From IMG/VR virus record IMGVR_UViG_3300017705_000602: DNA of 64,000 nucleotides, one strand, 5' to 3'. Below are positions 4,319 through 39,141 of this stretch, piece by piece. Both the position numbers and the translations under genes were made by a program. Below the pieces are notes generated by a model. It was not told where the DNA came from, searched no databases, and saw only the letters and a program-made list of their open reading frames with translations. Source of the stretch: a virus (Duplodnaviria; Heunggongvirae; Uroviricota; Caudoviricetes). Every line of letters begins with the position of its first letter. Positions within the stretch are counted from its first letter, which is position 1.

Positions 4319-4434
4319 ATTAATCATTGACATGATAAAATGCATTGTATATACTTACTGTGCAATATATCACTGTAAGTGATATAAAAAAAGAACTGCG
4401 ATGTATAGAAAGCAGTTACAAGAGTAAGAAATTT

Positions 4435-4941: not shown

Positions 4942-5025
4942 GGAGTGGCTGAGCATTGGCGAGCTCACTTGGTTGTAACCCAAACGCCCCTGGCTGTGTC
5001 CGTTCGACTCGGACCTGCTCCACCA
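4942..5025 (+). tRNA. tRNA-Tyr (anticodon GTA), class II long variable arm
   Basis: acceptor ggagtgg/ctgctcc, loop ttGTAac, long variable arm, T-arm gtccg ttcgact cggac, CCA. Confidence 0.7.
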
Positions 5026-5030
5026 TATAA

Positions 5031-5105
5031 GCCTCCAAAGCATTAGTGGCGATGCACCGGTTTTGTAATCCGGGGAATTCAGTTCGATTCTGGATGGAGG
5101 CACCA
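5031..5105 (+). tRNA. tRNA-Thr (anticodon TGT; Gln TTG not excluded)
   Basis: acceptor gcctcca/tggaggc perfect, loop tTTGTAa region, T-loop ttcgatt, CCA; anticodon register ambiguous by hand. Confidence 0.6.
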
Positions 5106-6258: not shown

Positions 6259-6513
6259 ATGAAACTAGAATTAAACAGAGTTACTTCGCATTTAAGAATC
6301 TTTATCGACGACAACAAGTCAACAGACAATAGAGATCCTTACGACACTATAATTACTGTTCAGCACATAAGTGATACAGAAGTACACTTGTCTGGACTTA
6401 AAGGTGTCATGAATAGAGAAATACTTAAAGAGATTGAACAGTTCTTTCGTGAACAAGGTGTTACCACTGTAACATTCGAAAGGCACGGAAAACAGCAATC
6501 TCGTAAAGATTAA
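6259..6513 (+). CDS. small hypothetical protein
   Basis: 84-aa ORF between tRNAs. Confidence 0.4.
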   Translation: MKLELNRVTSHLRIFIDDNKSTDNRDPYDTIITVQHISDTEVHLSGLKGVMNREILKEIEQFFREQGVTTVTFERHGKQQSRKD

Positions 6514-6514
6514 T

Positions 6515-6608
6515 GGAAGGTGACACGCCGAGATGGTCGGTGTCCTGGTCTTGAAAACCAGTGGAACCCTTGACGGGGTTTGGGGATCGTGCCCTCCGCC
6601 TTCCGCCA
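6515..6608 (+). tRNA. tRNA-Ser (anticodon TGA), class II
   Basis: anticodon stem ctggt/accag, loop ctTGAaa, long variable arm, acceptor ggaaggt/gccttcc, CCA; 94 nt. Confidence 0.65.
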
Positions 6609-6625
6609 TATAAAAGGTAGACAAA

Positions 6626-6892
6626 ATGACAATGAATGCGTATTATTGTTTAAGATGCGAACATCCTAACAATTGCAAGTGCGAAGACAAATCGAAAACA
6701 TTTCGGTATTCGCACAAGTTAAGAGTTCCTACATCGACCAAGAACAAAGTTAAGTTTAGAAAGTTCTTGGATGATTGTCCGATATTTGCTAATTGTGTAC
6801 CAGACGAGTTACAAGAAGATTTTCGTAACTTGTTAAGAAAAGTCAAGTACACCGGCCGTGAAATAAACGGTCACAAGTGGACAAAAGTTTAA
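6626..6892 (+). CDS. small Cys-rich (zinc-finger-like) protein
   Basis: 88 aa with CLRCEH..CKCED and C..C pairs. Confidence 0.45.
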   Translation: MTMNAYYCLRCEHPNNCKCEDKSKTFRYSHKLRVPTSTKNKVKFRKFLDDCPIFANCVPDELQEDFRNLLRKVKYTGREINGHKWTKV

Positions 6893-6893
6893 T

Positions 6894-6952
6894 GCCCTGG
6901 TAGCTCAGTTGGATTAGAGCATGCCGCTACGAACGGTAAGGCCGCAGGTTCA
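6894..6952 (+). pseudogene. tRNA-Arg (anticodon ACG) 5' fragment, truncated inside the T-loop at the HNH gene boundary
   Basis: intact acceptor 5' strand, D-arm, anticodon arm tgccg-ctACGaa-cggta and T-stem 5' strand gcagg-ttca; sequence then runs into tgataaatatatgcATG; no matching 3' acceptor found. Confidence 0.55.
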
Positions 6953-6966
6953 TGATAAATATATGC

Positions 6967-7644
6967 ATGGACTATACAAAACATTATGACGCCCTTATCG
7001 AACGTGCAAAACAGCGTGTGTTAACATGCTATACAGAAAACCATCATGTGATACCGAAATGCTTAGGTGGCAACGATACCAAAGAAAACATCGTGATGTT
7101 ACTACCGGAAGAACACTATGTAGCGCATCAGCTATTGGTAAAAATTTATCCTGGTAGTAAACAGCTTTTGTATGCGGCACTAATGATGACAGTTTCATCG
7201 GCAAGTGTTAAGCGTAAAAATAAAGCTTATAAATGGTTAAAAGAAAAATACCACTTGGTGTGCAAAGAAAGAACCGGTGTAAAAAATCCATCGTATGGTA
7301 AACCTTGGTATCACAATCCAGAAAATGGCGAATCGGGTAAATTTGAAGAAGATCAGCAACCCGTTGGATGGGTTAGAGGTCGAGTAAAGAAACCTAAAAG
7401 ATATTGCATTAAATGCAACACAGAAATTAATACATCTGTTGCTAAATGGTGCAACGAATGTAGACCAAAGAAAACTAAGAGTGTAATACGATCGGCTAAA
7501 CAAAAAGAAAAGTATTCTGAAGCTGATAAAATTAAAGCACTTAAAGAAAATAACGGTAATATAAGGCAGGCACTTTATAGCTTAGGTTTAAACGACAGCG
7601 GCTGGCATTATCGTAAAATGAAAGATTTATTAAGTAAGATTTGA
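6967..7644 (+). CDS. HNH homing endonuclease (paralog of 19865..20563)
   Basis: HHVIPKCLGGNDTKENIVML..EEHYVAH HNH motif, C-terminal CxxC..CxxC; start chosen by alignment with the paralog (MDYTKHYD / MDYKKLYY). Confidence 0.8.
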   Translation: MDYTKHYDALIERAKQRVLTCYTENHHVIPKCLGGNDTKENIVMLLPEEHYVAHQLLVKIYPGSKQLLYAALMMTVSSASVKRKNKAYKWLKEKYHLVCKERTGVKNPSYGKPWYHNPENGESGKFEEDQQPVGWVRGRVKKPKRYCIKCNTEINTSVAKWCNECRPKKTKSVIRSAKQKEKYSEADKIKALKENNGNIRQALYSLGLNDSGWHYRKMKDLLSKI

Positions 7645-24130: not shown

Positions 24131-24206
24131 GCACGGTTGTCTGAACGGTCTAGGTGCAGGATTGCAAATCCTTGTTATGCGAGTTCGAATCTCGCACCGT
24201 GCTCCA
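24131..24206 (+). tRNA. tRNA-Cys (anticodon GCA)
   Basis: acceptor gcacggt/accgtgc perfect, loop ttGCAaa, T-arm gcgag ttcgaat ctcgc, CCA. Confidence 0.65.
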
Positions 24207-31489: not shown

Positions 31490-31525
31490 ATGCAATGGCA
31501 ATTATGCATAACAAAGGAAAATCGC

Positions 31526-32527
31526 ATGTCATCGAAAGAAATTACTCCAGGTCGCATTATAAAATGGATCGTGTGGGCAATACTAGCTATTATTGCTTTT
31601 AGTGCTCTAATGGGATCGTTTTATATTAACTCAGAATACGAGCGCACAGTTGAAACACGCTTAGGCGAAATCAACGGTGATGTAACCGGTCCTGGGTTAC
31701 AGTTTAAAGCACCGTTTATCGATTCTGCTCACACAGCAGACATTCGCATAGACGAAATCAACTACCCGGGCGAAGTAACTGCATCGTACGATGGTCAGAC
31801 AATCAACATTGATATTACTATTAACCACCAGATACTTGAAGCGTCTGTGCAAAAGTTATATTCGGACTTTGGTTCAAACTATAACTACAGCGATCGTATC
31901 TTGCGCAAGATGGCAATTGATCGTATTAAAGGACTGATCGGTACATACAAAATTGAAGAGTTCATGCCTAATCGTGAACAGATTAGACAAGAAGCACTAA
32001 CAGTTGTTAAAGCAGAAGCCAACAAGTACGGTGTTAACATACTGGACATTCAGTTATCGAACTTTGAATTTGACCCACGCTTTAAAACACGTTTACAAGA
32101 AGTTGCTGATGCAAGAGCGCGAGCGTCAAAAGAAGAACAGCGAGCACGTGAAGCCGGCTTTGCTGCCGAGAAGCGTATCGAAGTCGAACGTGGTGAAGCA
32201 GAATCTAAAAAGCTTGCTGCCGATGCAAACGCTCACAAAATTCGTGTAGAGTCGGAACAAAAAGCGGCAGCTATACAGCGCGAAGGTGAAGCACAAGCGG
32301 CATCTGAACTTGCTAAAGGTACTGCAAAAGCCGAAGCAATTAAAGCACAGCTTGAAGCACTTGAACGAGGCGGGCAGAATTTGGTTGAGTTAACCAAAGC
32401 CGAAGCAATGAAAAATTGGGACGGTGTATACAGCCCGGACACAGTTATCAGTTCAGGCGGTACAGGCCAGCCAGGTTTTATACCTTTCATGAACTACAAT
32501 GAACTGTTGAAGCCAAAGAAAAACTAA
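31526..32527 (+). CDS. SPFH/band-7 (prohibitin/HflKC-like) membrane protein
   Basis: N-terminal TM then band-7 core (GLQFKAPFIDS...) and long Ala/Glu/Lys-rich coiled coil; AAAGGAAAATCGCATG RBS. Confidence 0.7.
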   Translation: MSSKEITPGRIIKWIVWAILAIIAFSALMGSFYINSEYERTVETRLGEINGDVTGPGLQFKAPFIDSAHTADIRIDEINYPGEVTASYDGQTINIDITINHQILEASVQKLYSDFGSNYNYSDRILRKMAIDRIKGLIGTYKIEEFMPNREQIRQEALTVVKAEANKYGVNILDIQLSNFEFDPRFKTRLQEVADARARASKEEQRAREAGFAAEKRIEVERGEAESKKLAADANAHKIRVESEQKAAAIQREGEAQAASELAKGTAKAEAIKAQLEALERGGQNLVELTKAEAMKNWDGVYSPDTVISSGGTGQPGFIPFMNYNELLKPKKN

Positions 32528-32553
32528 CACAGCCTGCAAGCGTGTAACTGAAT

Positions 32554-32580
32554 AAAAGCCCGCCTTGTGCGGGCTTTTTA
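32554..32580 (+). terminator. rho-independent terminator
   Basis: hairpin aaaagcccgc-cttgt-gcgggctttt. Confidence 0.7.
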
Positions 32581-32595
32581 TTAAAGGAATAAAAT

Positions 32596-32775
32596 ATGAA
32601 TGCACTGATTGATCTCAAGAACCTGTTTGAAAAACACAATATCAAAGTAACGTACTTTGATGGATATCAACTGCTAACTAAAAAGCACGGCAAATGGGGC
32701 CTGTCACTCGGCGAGTATCGTTGCAATGGCGAGATAGTTTCTCGCAAGGAAATTAACGATTTGGTCAAGAAATGA
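32596..32775 (+). CDS. small hypothetical protein (59 aa)
   Basis: AAAGGAATAAAATATG RBS; ATGA overlap with downstream gene. Confidence 0.4.
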   Translation: MNALIDLKNLFEKHNIKVTYFDGYQLLTKKHGKWGLSLGEYRCNGEIVSRKEINDLVKK

Positions 32776-33155
32776 AAAAAGAAATAATATTCGTGTCCAA
32801 GATATATTCGCAGGAATTGTATAAAAGTCCTAAAGCGCACATTGACAATAACCCACTTATCATAACCAGATTCAATCCGCGTTCTGGCAAGCGCATTGCT
32901 ACTGCCACAGGCAACAATTTAAGTAAGGTAGTATCAGCAGAGCATGCAGACTATTACTACATTATAGATCTCAGCGTACACGAGCATACACAGCTTGACC
33001 CTGCAGACATAACTGCATTTGTACTAGCTAACTCGCACAAGTGCCTAAATCGAATAATCGAAGACCACAACTGGAATATCGGATACATCCTGTTTGACTT
33101 TATCATGGATGGTGTATCGGACAACCAAGATAAAAAAATTAAAAGTTTTTTTTAA
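32772..33155 (+). CDS. hypothetical protein
   Basis: 127-aa ORF. Confidence 0.5.
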   Translation: MKKEIIFVSKIYSQELYKSPKAHIDNNPLIITRFNPRSGKRIATATGNNLSKVVSAEHADYYYIIDLSVHEHTQLDPADITAFVLANSHKCLNRIIEDHNWNIGYILFDFIMDGVSDNQDKKIKSFF

Positions 33156-33161
33156 AATAGG

Positions 33162-33189
33162 TTGACGTATTCAAAAACTAGTGTATAAT
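33162..33189 (+). promoter_or_regulatory. sigma70-type promoter TTGACG-16-TATAAT
   Basis: TTGACG 33162-33167, TATAAT 33184-33189. Confidence 0.55.
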
Positions 33190-33245
33190 GTGTAACATAC
33201 TTTAGCAAAGCAGAAACATGTTTTGCAAAATAAATTAAAAAAGAT

Positions 33246-33274
33246 GTTGACAAACACACATAACAGTGTATAAT
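33246..33274 (+). promoter_or_regulatory. sigma70-type promoter TTGACA-17-TATAAT
   Basis: TTGACA 33246-33251, TATAAT 33269-33274. Confidence 0.6.
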
Positions 33275-33372
33275 GTACAGCAACTTAGTTAGACAACTTG
33301 TTTGTTTAACAGCTCTTTAACAGAATTAGATTTATGATTTGGGCATGATAGAGTCATCGTAAGGTGGCCTAA

Positions 33373-33597
33373 ATGGCAAAGTCCATCACTTTGTCTACTG
33401 CAATTTCGATTGCAGTCAACCCAAGAAAGCCGAGGCCTCGTAAAGACTTCATTCCGGTGGAGTTCGTGCAGGACGTTAAGGTAACGAAAAGACAAATGCT
33501 GGCCAACGGTGACCATTTGTCGAGAGACCGCAAATCTCTAGTTGCAACGCAAAACTTAACTAATGTGCAAGGTCAAAGGGTATATTGTTTGGTGTGA
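33373..33597 (+). CDS. small basic hypothetical protein
   Basis: strong RBS AAGGTGG 6 nt upstream; 74 aa; lies in otherwise ORF-poor region. Confidence 0.35.
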   Translation: MAKSITLSTAISIAVNPRKPRPRKDFIPVEFVQDVKVTKRQMLANGDHLSRDRKSLVATQNLTNVQGQRVYCLV

Positions 33598-33762
33598 GTC
33601 TTAGCGGGCAAATGCTGTACAGTTGTTTAAAAGGTTGTGGTTAAACACATTCTTGAAAGACGGTCGAAAAGTAGTCTTAGCAGACGAAACGGCAGGTAGC
33701 GTAGTGCATTTGGTACCTCAAAAGGGTATCGACCATTTCTAGGGCGCACGTTACAGATGGTT

Positions 33763-33836
33763 ATTCAAGTTAGCTCAGTTTGGTAGAGCAAATGACTCTT
33801 AATCATTCGGTCGCAGGTTCAATTCCTGTATTTGAA
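33763..33836 (+). tRNA. tRNA-Lys (anticodon CTT), isolated from main array
   Basis: acceptor ttcaagt/atttgaa (U1-A72), D-arm gctc agtttggta gagc, anticodon stem aatga/tcatt, loop ctCTTaa, T-arm gcagg ttcaatt cctgt; no encoded CCA. Confidence 0.55.
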
Positions 33837-33839
33837 ATC

Positions 33840-34318
33840 AAAAAAGCAAAGACGCCCTGGGATAGTAAGAAAGAGTAAATGGCTTAATTGTCCTAACCCG
33901 CAAGGGAATTAGGAATGTACGAAGCTCGCAAGGCAGAATACATTTTGTTGGAAGTTGCACGTTGTAGTCGAATACTTAACAGCTCGCAAGGCTGGCGGTA
34001 AACCAATAGCAGAAACGCTTACTATCAAGAACTTCGGTTCGACATGAAACGCCACATGTAAAAAGGCAGCCATGCTTGGAGACGATTGCGTGTCGAAAGA
34101 CAGCAAAAGTGGATGAGAAGTAAATCCGTAGGGTCGCACCGAAGGAGTAACACTTCAAACGTCCGAGTGTATTAGCTGTAATTCTCAAGCTAATAAACCT
34201 TGCTTATATCAATACAGAATATATCGGATATAAGTAATGTACTGGGTATCATACGAAACTACCACTAATATATAGAATACATATACGTAGAAAAGTCGCT
34301 GATATCGCGAGTACCAAA
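33840..34318 (+). ncRNA. candidate structured non-coding RNA region (uncharacterised)
   Basis: ~480 nt without credible ORF downstream of two strong promoters and a tRNA; duplicated 12-mer agctcgcaaggc (33925, 33978); ends at terminator 34319-34347. Confidence 0.3.
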
Positions 34319-34347
34319 CAGCACCTAAAAAGGTGCTTTTTTTATGG
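34319..34347 (+). terminator. rho-independent terminator
   Basis: hairpin agcacc-taaaaa-ggtgct + T7. Confidence 0.7.
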
Positions 34348-34359
34348 CCGCAAAACCGG

Positions 34360-34388
34360 TAGACAATGATACTTCTGTGTCGTACAAT
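34360..34388 (+). promoter_or_regulatory. sigma70-like promoter TAGACA-17-TACAAT
   Basis: TAGACA 34360-34365, TACAAT 34383-34388. Confidence 0.4.
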
Positions 34389-34420
34389 TAGTTTATCAAC
34401 AACAACATGTAGAGATTATT

Positions 34421-35506
34421 GTGGAATTTATACTTGCTTTAATTGGGCCTGCCGCAGTTGCCGTATTTGCAAAACTGTACTTCAAACAGGAAATCAGCAA
34501 ACGTGAAACGCTAGCACAGATTGCAATCGGTATAGGATTCGGGTTTATGGTGTCTGTATTGATTGCAATGGGTCAGCTACATGATAACGAATATGTTACA
34601 GGCCAAGTGATCAACAAGCATCGCGACAACGACAGCTACGAAGAAAGCTACGATTGCAATTGTCGCACAGTAACATCGGGTTCCGGAGATAGCAAAACCA
34701 CTTCAACGGTGTGCGACACTTGTTGGAAAACAATCTACACAGTGGACTGGTATTTAAGTTCTACAGTTGGGCGCATCGCAATCAACAGCCGTGAATCTGA
34801 AAGCCAACAAGTGTGGATTGCACCCAATCCACAAGCCTGGATCGACGCTAAAATCGGCGAAGCATGTACTACAGCTCGATCGTACCAAAACTATATTTTA
34901 GCGTCACCGGACAGTTTGTTTAATTCGTCGGAGTATGGCAATAACGAATTTGCTGTGCCAGGGTATCCGCGCATGCATTCCATATACAAAATGAAACATG
35001 CACTCACAGTAGACGGAGCAATACCTAACTCGGCTGAATGGACAGAACAAATTCGAGAACATTTAAAAATTCGCAATGCTAATAGCAGTCCAAATGTGTT
35101 GTTTGTGTTTACTAAATCAACCGACAGAACTTTTAAATATGCGCTAGAGCGTAATTGGACAGGCGGCAAAAAGAATGACTTGATTGTTGTTATCGGCACA
35201 GCCAACTATCCAAACGCAAACTGGACAGAAGTTATAACACTTGGTAAGACTTCCGGCAACGAACTAACGGCAGTAAAAATAAGAGACATAGTCGAAGATC
35301 ATCATCTAGATCCACAAGTAACAGTTAAAAATGTGTTTAGCATGATTGACAAGCACTTTGATATGAAACCGATAAGCGACTTTGAATATCTCAAAGACGA
35401 ACAACAAATGACATTATGGCAAGCATTAGCAGTTGTATTTGCTTCGATAATTGTTAGTATTATAGTAAGTTATATATTTTCACGCAACGCTTTAAGGAGC
35501 AAATAA
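34421..35506 (+). CDS. membrane protein with N- and C-terminal TM helices (DUF2207-like partner of LemA, tentative)
   Basis: GTG start; two N-terminal TM helices, large soluble domain, C-terminal TM; directly upstream of LemA-like gene as in bacterial LemA/DUF2207 pairs. Confidence 0.5.
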   Translation: MEFILALIGPAAVAVFAKLYFKQEISKRETLAQIAIGIGFGFMVSVLIAMGQLHDNEYVTGQVINKHRDNDSYEESYDCNCRTVTSGSGDSKTTSTVCDTCWKTIYTVDWYLSSTVGRIAINSRESESQQVWIAPNPQAWIDAKIGEACTTARSYQNYILASPDSLFNSSEYGNNEFAVPGYPRMHSIYKMKHALTVDGAIPNSAEWTEQIREHLKIRNANSSPNVLFVFTKSTDRTFKYALERNWTGGKKNDLIVVIGTANYPNANWTEVITLGKTSGNELTAVKIRDIVEDHHLDPQVTVKNVFSMIDKHFDMKPISDFEYLKDEQQMTLWQALAVVFASIIVSIIVSYIFSRNALRSK

Positions 35507-35507
35507 C

Positions 35508-36050
35508 ATGAAACCATGGCACATCGTTTTACTGGTAATCGGGCTAATTGTAGTCGGGTTAGTAGGTTCTTTTATTAGTACATACAATTACGGAGTACGA
35601 GCAGAACAAGGCATCAAGTCCGCCTGGGAAAACAACGAAAACATTTTGGGTCAGTATTCACTCAAGGTAAAAGAAACTGCAAAAGTTTCTGACAAGTACA
35701 GTGGTGCAATTTCTCAATATGTAAGAGACACCATGACAGGTCGTTATGGCGAAAGTGGCTCGCAAGCACAAATGCAATGGATACAAGAAAACATTCCGGA
35801 TTTTGATGCAAGCATGTACAAACAAATACAGCAAATTATCGAAGCCGGACGTACCAAGTTCGAAAATGCTCAAACAGAACTAGTCGATCGCAAGCGTGCT
35901 TACGAAATTGAACTGAACAGTTTGTGGAGCGGTGCAATGCTTGGGTTAGCAGGTTATCCGAAAATCAACTTAGACGATTATAAAATTATAACATCCGAGC
36001 ATGCTAAAGAAACATTCGAATCCGGTGTTGACAAAGGTGTAGAATTTTAA
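35508..36050 (+). CDS. LemA-family protein
   Basis: N-terminal TM MKPWHIVLLVIGLIVVGLVGSF then helical domain of LemA-like size; AAGGAGC RBS. Confidence 0.5.
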   Translation: MKPWHIVLLVIGLIVVGLVGSFISTYNYGVRAEQGIKSAWENNENILGQYSLKVKETAKVSDKYSGAISQYVRDTMTGRYGESGSQAQMQWIQENIPDFDASMYKQIQQIIEAGRTKFENAQTELVDRKRAYEIELNSLWSGAMLGLAGYPKINLDDYKIITSEHAKETFESGVDKGVEF

Positions 36051-37834: not shown

Positions 37835-38688
37835 TTACAGAAAAACACTTTTGGGTCTCCGACTTTAACCGTGCGTCGAATTATGCAAAGCAATATCCTG
37901 ACATTAGCAAGATATTCGATTACCCAAGCGCAACATGGTTAACCGGTAGATCCAAATACAAAAAAATTATCGATAGATCTATTAAGCGTACTTTACGTAG
38001 AGCCGCTCCTTATTTGCCTACGTTTGTGCTTTATGCAATACCAAATAGAGATCTGGGGCATCATTCTGCAGGCGGTCTTGCATCTGACGAAGAATACTTT
38101 CAGTTTGTTAAACGTATTGCACAAGGCATCGGGAATAAAAGTCCTGTGGTGATCGTTGAACCGGATGCATTACCACATTCAACATTGCTTGACAACAAGC
38201 AACAAAAGCACAGAATTTCGCTTATTAAAAAAGCTGTAAAAATTCTAGCTAACAATTGTGATGCAATTGTTTACATTGACATTGGTCATTCCAATTGGTT
38301 ATCACCATCGGATTCGTACGACTTGTTAATGCAAGCAGGAATTGCACAAGCAAGAGGATTTTCAGTTAACGTGTCCAATTATCAATCAACGCACGATTCG
38401 TTGTTGTGGGGCACCAGAATTGCAAGCGGGTTCGAAGACGAAAAATACTTTATTGTTGACACCAGCCGAAACGGACAAGGTCCGCTTGACGACTGCTGGT
38501 GCAATCCGCCAGGCAGAGGCTTAGGTGAAACACCAACGCATGAAACACCTAGTCGCTTTTGTGATGCGTACATGTGGATTAAAGTTCCGGGTGAGTCAGA
38601 CGGCAAATGCAACGGTGGACCTCATGCAGGGAAATTTTGGCCTGAGCAAGCAGTTGAACTTGTGCAGAACTCTCCGTTTATTCGATAA
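37831..38688 (+). CDS. glycoside hydrolase family 6-like protein (cellulase/cellobiohydrolase fold), no signal peptide
   Basis: GH6 blocks VLYAIPNRDLGHHSAGG, VIVEPDAL, IDIGHSNWL, NVSNY, VDTSRNG, CDAYMWIKVPGESDG; ATGA-coupled to uvdE. Confidence 0.7.
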   Translation: MITEKHFWVSDFNRASNYAKQYPDISKIFDYPSATWLTGRSKYKKIIDRSIKRTLRRAAPYLPTFVLYAIPNRDLGHHSAGGLASDEEYFQFVKRIAQGIGNKSPVVIVEPDALPHSTLLDNKQQKHRISLIKKAVKILANNCDAIVYIDIGHSNWLSPSDSYDLLMQAGIAQARGFSVNVSNYQSTHDSLLWGTRIASGFEDEKYFIVDTSRNGQGPLDDCWCNPPGRGLGETPTHETPSRFCDAYMWIKVPGESDGKCNGGPHAGKFWPEQAVELVQNSPFIR

Positions 38689-38722
38689 ACACAGCACTTG
38701 AATTAAAAAAGGAAGATTCGTT

Positions 38723-38884
38723 ATGCAATGCCCTGAGTGCAATAGCAACCTAGAAGAAGATGACGAAATCGATACTTCGGTCATTGACGCTGATAGCTGC
38801 CAGATAAACTTTAAGTGTATCAACGAAGATTGTGCAAAACATTTTTGTGTTGAATTCTCTCCTATTGATATAACCGAAATTTAA
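38723..38884 (+). CDS. small zinc-ribbon protein (53 aa)
   Basis: AAGGAAG RBS; CPEC...C..C..C pattern. Confidence 0.4.
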   Translation: MQCPECNSNLEEDDEIDTSVIDADSCQINFKCINEDCAKHFCVEFSPIDITEI

Positions 38885-38955
38885 TCTGCTAGACTAGACA
38901 AAATATTTCTTTTGTTGTATACTGTGTACATGTTAAACGTGTAAGGCAGTAAAAC

Positions 38956-39141
38956 ATGAGCGAAACATGTAAAGTGTGTAAATTTCATCACACGCACACC
39001 ACTGAGCAAATATCAGGGCATTGTACTAAATGGCAAGAGTGGAAAGAATACCACCCGTGCTCACAGTATTGGCCTCGCCCTGTTGAAGACACTGCTGAAG
39101 AAAATTTATTAGACAATCAGACTCATCGGTTTCGGTGTTAG
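38956..39141 (+). CDS. small Cys/His-rich protein
   Basis: 61-aa ORF CKVCKFHHTH...C..C. Confidence 0.4.
   Translation: MSETCKVCKFHHTHTTEQISGHCTKWQEWKEYHPCSQYWPRPVEDTAEENLLDNQTHRFRC

Follow-up and report, generated by a model that had tools for sequence, protein, structure and literature searches.

The locus

The DNA analysed here is a 64,000-nucleotide (nt) stretch of viral sequence (IMG/VR record IMGVR_UViG_3300017705_000602, Caudoviricetes), referred to below, at its full length, as the window. Within it, positions 33156-34420 contain no open reading frame (ORF) longer than 76 amino acids (aa) on either strand, are entered through two tandem sigma70-type promoters, carry a transfer RNA (tRNA) gene for lysine and are closed by an intrinsic terminator (Table 1). 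We find that positions 33280-34344 of the + strand very probably form a single transcription unit for a giant RNA of the GOLLD family (Rfam RF02032), with the tRNA-Lys lying in the linker between its two domains. The unit measures ~1.07 kb from the second promoter (P2) and ~1.15 kb from the first (P1).

A reading of the same DNA made earlier from the letters alone (hereafter the sequence-only reading) had singled the region out as ORF-poor and had doubted its one candidate gene of 74 aa, both with good reason. Its two near-consensus promoters are present at 33162 and 33247 (33246 in that reading), and its strong terminator and its duplicated 12-mer are likewise real, the latter starting 2-3 nt away from the 33925 and 33978 it had given and corresponding to two conserved GOLLD hairpins. 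The tRNA-Lys(CTT) that it called isolated is indeed a tRNA, 9.5 kb from the nearest other one (24131-24206), but is embedded in the GOLLD linker rather than standing alone.

Table 1. Features of the GOLLD transcription unit and its flanks (positions in the window)
Feature	Position	Strand	Basis or remark
Promoter P1, TTGACG-16-TATAAT, 11/12 consensus matches, A/T-rich tract upstream	33162-33189	+	sigma70-type
Small conserved hairpin GCAAA...TTTGC between P1 and P2	33205-33226	+	alignment columns ~97-125; compensatory variant in L048
Promoter P2, TTGACA-16-TATAAT, 12/12 matches, predicted +1 at about 33280-33282	33247-33274	+	sigma70-type
GOLLD 5' domain, ~416 nt, ~18 helices	33280-33695	+	outside the Rfam model
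74-aa ORF, peptide MAKSITLSTAISIAV...	33373-33597	+	spurious; inside the GOLLD 5' domain
Long hairpin opening the Rfam GOLLD model (model positions 1-63)	33696-33754	+	Rfam alignment
GOLLD linker, ~105 nt, with a conserved A-rich/GCAAAGACG motif as its 3' end	33755-33859	+	Rfam alignment; linker as defined in PMC12286853
tRNA-Lys(CUU) in the GOLLD linker	33764-33837	+	ARAGORN; Rfam tRNA 66.6 bits
Conserved GOLLD 3' domain	33860-34191	+	RF02032 match and covariation
First 12-mer copy, tip of the P20 hairpin (GCUCGCAAGGC)	33923-33934	+	invariant in all relatives
P21a hairpin (helix 9)	33964-33975	+	alignment A1 columns 889-905
Second 12-mer copy, tip of the P21b hairpin (helix 10)	33981-33992	+	Rfam alignment, covariation test
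3' extension past the Rfam model	34192-34318	+	two long hairpins, their tips AT-rich and variable
Intrinsic terminator: 7-bp stem and AAAA loop (34320-34337), then T7 (34338-34344)	34320-34344	+	

A full-length match to the GOLLD family just below the Rfam threshold

The GOLLD RNA family was reportedly described by Weinberg et al. in 2009. In a permissive Rfam scan of positions 32500-35000, the RF02032 model aligned to 33696-34191 over its entire length (model positions 1-416 of 416) with 147.3 bits and E=1.4e-40, and the same match had E=3.5e-39 when the whole 64-kb window was scanned. In this alignment the tRNA occupies the variable linker, for which the model has no structure. Because 147.3 bits lies under the curated Rfam gathering threshold for this family, which is 150 bits, the GOLLD is missed by default annotation, and a default Rfam scan of the whole window returned tRNAs only. 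A match to the model of ROOL, another giant phage RNA, was sought at E<=10 in 32500-35000 and at E<=0.01 across the whole window, and none was found. The defining features of GOLLD that could be tested, namely a full-length match to the family model, a covarying 3' domain, a size above 700-800 nt with a large and less conserved 5' domain, the lack of a conserved ORF and a setting among phage and tRNA genes, are all found at the locus, which on this sequence-level evidence is a member of the family. It is thus an unannotated GOLLD, in fact one of a small clade of them, and the kind of element is one already known.

Both domains covary across seven lineages

Structure was assessed on alignment A1, a MAFFT alignment of seven loci (the window and its relatives), onto which the Rfam consensus structure, derived without any of the aligned sequences, was projected. 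In the 3' domain, 85.7% of cells were paired under this structure as compared with 30-46% when partners were slid, and 24 pairs had changed on both sides as compared with 0-3 in the slid controls, values reached in none of 500 shuffles. The hairpin at the start of the model was paired in 92-100% of cells in its helices 1-2 and held 4 compensatory pairs. For the 5' domain, RNAalifold gave 122 pairs with 94.7% of cells paired, a percentage that is inflated since the structure was derived from the same sequences; the informative number is that of double changes, which amounted to 37 pairs as compared with 2-7 in slid controls. Long-range helices span 150-170 nt, and the conserved structure runs without a break for about 1 kb. 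Past the Rfam model, the two hairpins of the 3' extension (about 34199-34240 and 34239-34314) have conserved arms and comprise 29 pairs, 5 of them compensatory. These values come from seven lineages in which the flanking protein is only 60-71% identical while the RNA retains a mean column identity of 77%. An Infernal scan against Rfam and a search for conservation and covariation in relatives were among the checks on which the sequence-only reading had let its RNA proposal depend; the scan found the GOLLD, and conservation and covariation are present in both domains.

The proximal part of the 5' domain could be traced beyond this clade. A covariance model built on it (R1, 33582-33700) matched full-length in six other viral contigs (28-46 bits, E 8e-9 to 2e-4), each time immediately 5' of a bona fide GOLLD match that scores 185-198 bits, and the proximal 5' domain is homologous to the 5' flank of these six GOLLDs. 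Models of the middle and distal parts (R2 and R3) gave marginal though collinear matches in three contigs (L007, L012 and L013).

Several results weigh against the assignment. The score of the window RNA falls 2.7 bits short of the gathering threshold, and consensus helices 11 and 13 are only 50-63% paired in the window clade, a weakness that probably accounts for the borderline score. Folded as a single sequence, the 5' domain has an unexceptional energy (z=-0.78), and its distal two thirds found no significant match in other GOLLDs with models R2 and R3; we accordingly regard the distal 5' domain as apparently clade-specific and claim no homology for it to other GOLLDs. Sequence profiles did not reach env-38, one of the GOLLDs of solved structure, for which the sequence used was approximate (816 vs 833 nt). 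Finally, GOLLDs are known as 10-, 12- or 14-mers, and none of these stoichiometries can be predicted for the window RNA.

The duplicated 12-mer and candidate kissing loops

The 12-mer AGCTCGCAAGGC occurs exactly twice, at the tips of two hairpins of the 3' domain (Table 1), and with up to one mismatch it was observed 3 times as compared with 0.15 expected. The helix names P20, P21a and P21b used here follow our own mapping of the Rfam consensus onto the published nomenclature and are to be read as inferred. Under this mapping, P21b of the window RNA has been turned into a copy of the P20 hairpin. The stem of P21a covaries (GUA/UAC, GGG/CCC, GUG/CAC and GGA/UCC) around an invariant loop, GUCGAA, which contains the palindrome UCGA and is a candidate self-kissing loop. 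In published GOLLDs both the L21a and the L21b loops are self-kissing (PMC12286853, PMC12990946), with GC<->CG variation in L21a (PMC12286853). On visual inspection, the linker offered no convincing kissing partner with which the L20 loop would form bridge B7; the L20 loop is invariant in the clade and for that reason can show no covariation.

A clade of marine jumbo-phage GOLLDs

The carrier of the locus is an uncultured marine jumbo phage: genes of the window recur on contigs from marine metagenomes that reach about 320 kb, and orthologs of the 361-aa gene directly downstream (window 34421-35506), at 60-71% identity, on contigs of up to 335 kb. Seven syntenic relatives, on marine jumbo-phage contigs mostly of 200-335 kb, carry the locus in the same place. 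They largely share one gene order (glutaredoxin, Band_7, a 127-138-aa gene, a gap, a 362-409-aa gene, a 180-aa gene, UvdE and GH6), in which the gap is gene-free, measures 1.15-1.3 kb and holds a GOLLD match in every case. The orthologous GOLLDs scored 152.1, 151.3, 148.8, 143.1, 139.9, 138.1, 105 and 88 bits, the last from a locus cut by the contig end, and the two highest (L046 and L047) exceed the 150-bit Rfam threshold. In this marine clade, then, the GOLLD sits at or just under the threshold and is overlooked by default annotation. IMG/VR contigs whose counterpart of the downstream gene is 32-36% identical lack a GOLLD in its vicinity, and the synteny is therefore confined to the closer clade, which was found via a large protein database.

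The locus is not an assembly artefact, since it recurs in independent metagenome assemblies: it is 100% identical across all 1351 bases in three others (L033, L039 and L040; one from JGI, two from Logan) and, over the part covered, in four shorter contigs. No nucleotide relative turned up among 50,697 GenBank phages when the locus and 24 kb of the window were searched by Megablast, and a search in a distant mode gave only matches at the level of tRNAs together with the GOLLD core of Xanthomonas phage XacN1. Of other tRNA matches, the one in Mycobacterium phage CELFI falls on a tRNA-Lys that is annotated within a dense array of tRNAs; the one in Enterococcus phage EFC-1 was rejected because it covers just a tRNA and Rfam gave no GOLLD there.

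XacN1 is a cultured jumbo phage (AP018399.1, L001), and its 227-bit GOLLD (record about 38570-38983, locus 2357-2770) is likewise unannotated. It lies ~1 kb downstream of an unannotated permuted/beta-type transfer-messenger RNA (tmRNA; locus 964-1383) and directly 5' of tRNA-Gly, Leu and Glu. Phage tmRNA genes also occur within about 2-2.5 kb of a GOLLD in unrelated viral contigs (L013 5476-5870, L014 539-933, L018 5754-6148 and L026 11169-11698); the window itself has no tmRNA call.

Around the GOLLD of the window, a Band_7/SPFH protein is encoded upstream (31490-32527) and two predicted membrane proteins downstream (to 35508-36050). In one relative (L053) a PAS-domain gene is inserted upstream (1501-2187) and a GIY-YIG endonuclease gene downstream (6316-7005). 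One ortholog of the 361-aa protein (P0004) is deposited at NCBI as 'MAG: hypothetical protein [Rickettsiales bacterium]'; the neighbourhood of its gene (a T4-type spanin, a GOLLD, UvdE and GH6) indicates that the contig is a jumbo phage binned as a bacterium.

The linker tRNA

By ARAGORN the window holds 23 tRNAs, and the one in the GOLLD linker has what is expected of an elongator tRNA-Lys: a cloverleaf with a perfect 7-bp acceptor stem, a 7-nt anticodon loop with U33, an NUU anticodon and A73. The CCA end is not encoded (ATCA stands in its place), and it is encoded in the linker tRNAs of 4/7 relatives. Across 12 linker tRNAs, 95.2% of cloverleaf cells were paired and 16/21 pairs were compensatory.

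A tRNA also lies within the bona fide GOLLD matches of 185-198 bits (L012, L013, L017, L025, L026 and L031). Four independent IMG/VR contigs (L017, L025, L026 and L028) likewise have Lys(CUU) as their linker tRNA, and another group has Leu(CAG); in L012 (2555-2626, - strand) and L031 (5493-5564, - strand) the anticodon loop has 8 nt with UGAU, and in the L017 group acceptor pairs 1-72 and 2-71 are broken. Other GOLLDs have no linker tRNA at all (XacN1, L007 and env-38). Within the window clade the cloverleaf is kept while the anticodon drifts. It is CUU in the window and L051 and UUU in L048 and L050, and it is AUU ('Asn', A34) in the two assemblies of the most widespread lineage (L046 2968-3044 and L047 2969-3045). 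An AUU anticodon is, to our knowledge, not normally used in bacteria. L054 (310-385) has UUUU in an 8-nt loop, possibly a sequencing error at 3x coverage, and L053 (about 2838-2912) has a degenerate acceptor stem and no ARAGORN or Rfam tRNA call.

The tRNA-in-linker architecture itself is already known, since tRNAs have been reported in the GOLLD linker, which lies inside the cage that these RNAs form (PMC12286853, PMC12990946). In the env-38 14-mer, linker nt 497-538 are disordered in the cage interior (PMC12286853); in Mycolicibacterium, a tRNA-Phe occupies the same place, for which a review proposed 'inhibited storage' (PMC12990946, citing Morgado 2020); and the pseudo-tRNA inside the GOLLD of M. 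aubagnense was not detected as a separate RNA (PMC6582537). The mycobacterial cases (PMC12990946, PMC6582537) share with the window a cloverleaf in the single-stranded linker facing the cage interior, whereas in the window clade the tRNA is Lys(CUU) with an intact acceptor stem and a wobble base that varies among relatives, and its carrier is a marine jumbo phage rather than a mycobacterial tRNA array.

Elsewhere in the window, positions 4942-5022 gave an Rfam tRNA match of 34.1 bits (cut-off 29) in a permissive scan only, with no ARAGORN call, and may be an atypical 24th tRNA beside the tRNA-Thr at 5031.

Alternative readings of the locus

Other accounts of the region have to explain the same structure. 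The 74-aa ORF, with the remainder of the unit as untranslated region, is preceded 5 nt upstream by a Shine-Dalgarno-like AAGGTGG and is called by metagenome gene callers, yet among 5.8e9 proteins it has no homolog but itself, its frame is interrupted by in-frame stops and frameshifting indels in 6/6 relatives (with the ATG lost in 2) despite nucleotide conservation of about 80-85%, and its variable columns fall evenly on the three codon positions (32/32/33, with no third-position bias). The same nucleotides form covarying helices. A small protein as the product is therefore close to negligible in probability; the ORF is a chance one within the 5' domain, its 'ribosome-binding site' is part of a helix and loop, and the hypothetical 74-aa protein called by several metagenome pipelines can be dropped. 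Several independent small RNAs around a tRNA gene, the arrangement that the sequence-only reading had favoured by comparison with T4, would fit a non-coding, promoter-driven region with a tRNA in a phage that has a T4-type spanin (a weak Pfam match). The T4 stable RNAs C and D (species 1 and 2 RNAs) are ~120-140 nt long and are processed from a tRNA cluster transcript, at whose end they lie. Compared by description only, they resemble the window RNA as phage-encoded stable non-coding RNAs tied to tRNA genes, whereas the window has one RNA of ~1 kb that is driven by promoters of its own and lies 9.5 kb away from the tRNA array. Against a set of small RNAs stand the contiguity of the structure, the helices that bridge 150-170 nt, the lack of internal promoters or terminators within the unit and the end-to-end match to one 416-position family model, which make that arrangement very unlikely: the earlier view of the region as a non-coding, structured, promoter-to-terminator RNA holds, but the RNA is one contiguous GOLLD and the likeness to T4 RNAs C and D fails. 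A decaying GOLLD relic without current function would account for the sub-threshold score and for the weakened consensus helices; seven lineages, however, retain the RNA with compensatory changes, both promoters and the terminator next to a far less conserved protein, and two orthologs score above the threshold, so that we hold decay to be highly improbable.

A further alternative concerns function only and is compatible with GOLLD identity. It takes the unit as a tRNA precursor whose real product is the mature tRNA-Lys(CUU); RNase P and 3' processing would leave a 5' piece of ~480 nt and a 3' piece of ~500 nt, and the scaffold would control the timing of maturation or protection. The perfect acceptor stem and A73 of the window tRNA, the CCA encoded in 4/7 relatives and the strong structural selection on the cloverleaf all speak for it. 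AAG makes up one third of the Lys codons in window ORFs and the main array supplies Lys(UUU) only, so a decoding role is plausible for the window copy, though GOLLDs in general do not require one. What counts against it is that many GOLLDs lack a linker tRNA, that the acceptor stem is broken in L017-type GOLLDs and degenerate in L053, that the anticodon is not conserved, that the window tRNA has no encoded CCA, and that the mycobacterial pseudo-tRNA was not seen as a free RNA (PMC6582537). On balance we consider the precursor function possible, though only tentatively so; the RNA-processing substrate that the sequence-only reading had also suggested may likewise be real, since the embedded tRNA could be excised. 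We give rather little credence to the converse proposal, in which the linker tRNA would not primarily decode but would, as a caged tRNA-like module, serve as bait or be kept in reserve, with diversifying pressure acting on its anticodon loop. For such a proposal it is of interest that within one phage clade compensatory changes preserve the cloverleaf while position 34 takes C, U and A, that two other lineages have anticodon loops of 8 nt, and that PrrC-type anticodon nucleases classically attack tRNA-Lys; if it were true, a cage with 12-14 sequestered tRNA-Lys-like modules could shield a reserve from host defences aimed at tRNAs, or act as their decoy.

A predicted nanocage with an interior tRNA

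As a GOLLD, the window RNA shares with the family the full-length model match, the covarying 3'-domain helices, a large and variable 5' domain, a linker between the domains, phage origin, association with tRNA genes and self-complementary loops in P21a and P21b. It differs in its slightly sub-threshold score, in the conversion of P21b described above, in an L21a loop that reads GUCGAA (the CG variant) rather than CGCAA, in two additional 3' hairpins ahead of the terminator, and in a distal 5' domain that cannot be aligned. ROOL RNA (RF03087) is an analogue in function and architecture, since it too is a giant RNA carried by phages close to tRNA islands and builds a nanocage of RNA alone with an internal linker, but its sequence and fold are unrelated to those of the window RNA.

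Two GOLLD structures have been solved, the env-38 14-mer (PDB 9MEE) and the 12-mer of S. agalactiae (9L0R). By homology to these, the window RNA would assemble by itself, without protein, into a closed dihedral nanocage of 10-14 subunits in which the 5' domains would build the caps and the 3' domains the ring. Half-shells would be joined via self-complementary loops, for which the invariant GUCGAA of P21a and the CGCAA of P21b are candidates, and the linker, hence one tRNA per subunit, would point to the cage interior. With low certainty, the most likely role of the RNA would be that of an abundant phage RNA, made during infection, that sequesters a tRNA or tRNA-like module. Speculatively, the module might serve as a protected reserve that processing or opening of the cage sets free, as a means of releasing tRNA at a set time, or as bait for some host factor that binds tRNAs. 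Natural RNAs known to build nanocages without protein are very few, and GOLLD is among them. The seven orthologs constitute a natural experiment, in which the same cage scaffold holds an interior tRNA that varies in anticodon, encoded CCA and acceptor integrity, and this variation makes the purpose of the caged tRNA more directly testable.

Promoters and flanking signals

The hexamers of P1 and P2 are invariant in 6/6 relatives that cover them, while the spacers vary, and the relatives keep a terminator hairpin and T-run of differing stem sequence. The window has 10 sites with at least 11/12 promoter matches on its + strand and 1 on its - strand, as compared with 1.2 +/- 1.2 expected from first-order Markov simulations. 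Tandem consensus promoters with A/T-rich tracts upstream suggest that host RNA polymerase, without modification, would transcribe the unit very strongly. A rise of expression in lytic growth counts among the traits of GOLLD, for which the window shows the promoter and terminator anatomy. The small hairpin between P1 and P2 would occur only in P1-initiated transcripts, any role of it being presumptive, and the A-rich tract 3' of this hairpin is probably an UP-like element of P2.

A promoter-like TAGACA-17-TACAAT occupies 34360-34388, in the interval that separates the GOLLD terminator from the following gene. Because its elements GGTAGAC and TA(C/T)AAT are kept in the relatives, it probably drives the gene downstream, which encodes the 361-aa membrane protein. 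A second near-consensus sigma70 pair (2293-2320 and 2474-2502, with 11/12 and 12/12 matches and 181 bp apart) lies just 5' of the main tRNA array, which starts at 2913, and the remaining strong promoter sites of the + strand are at 4327, 8811, 18358, 25656, 47733 and 62972.

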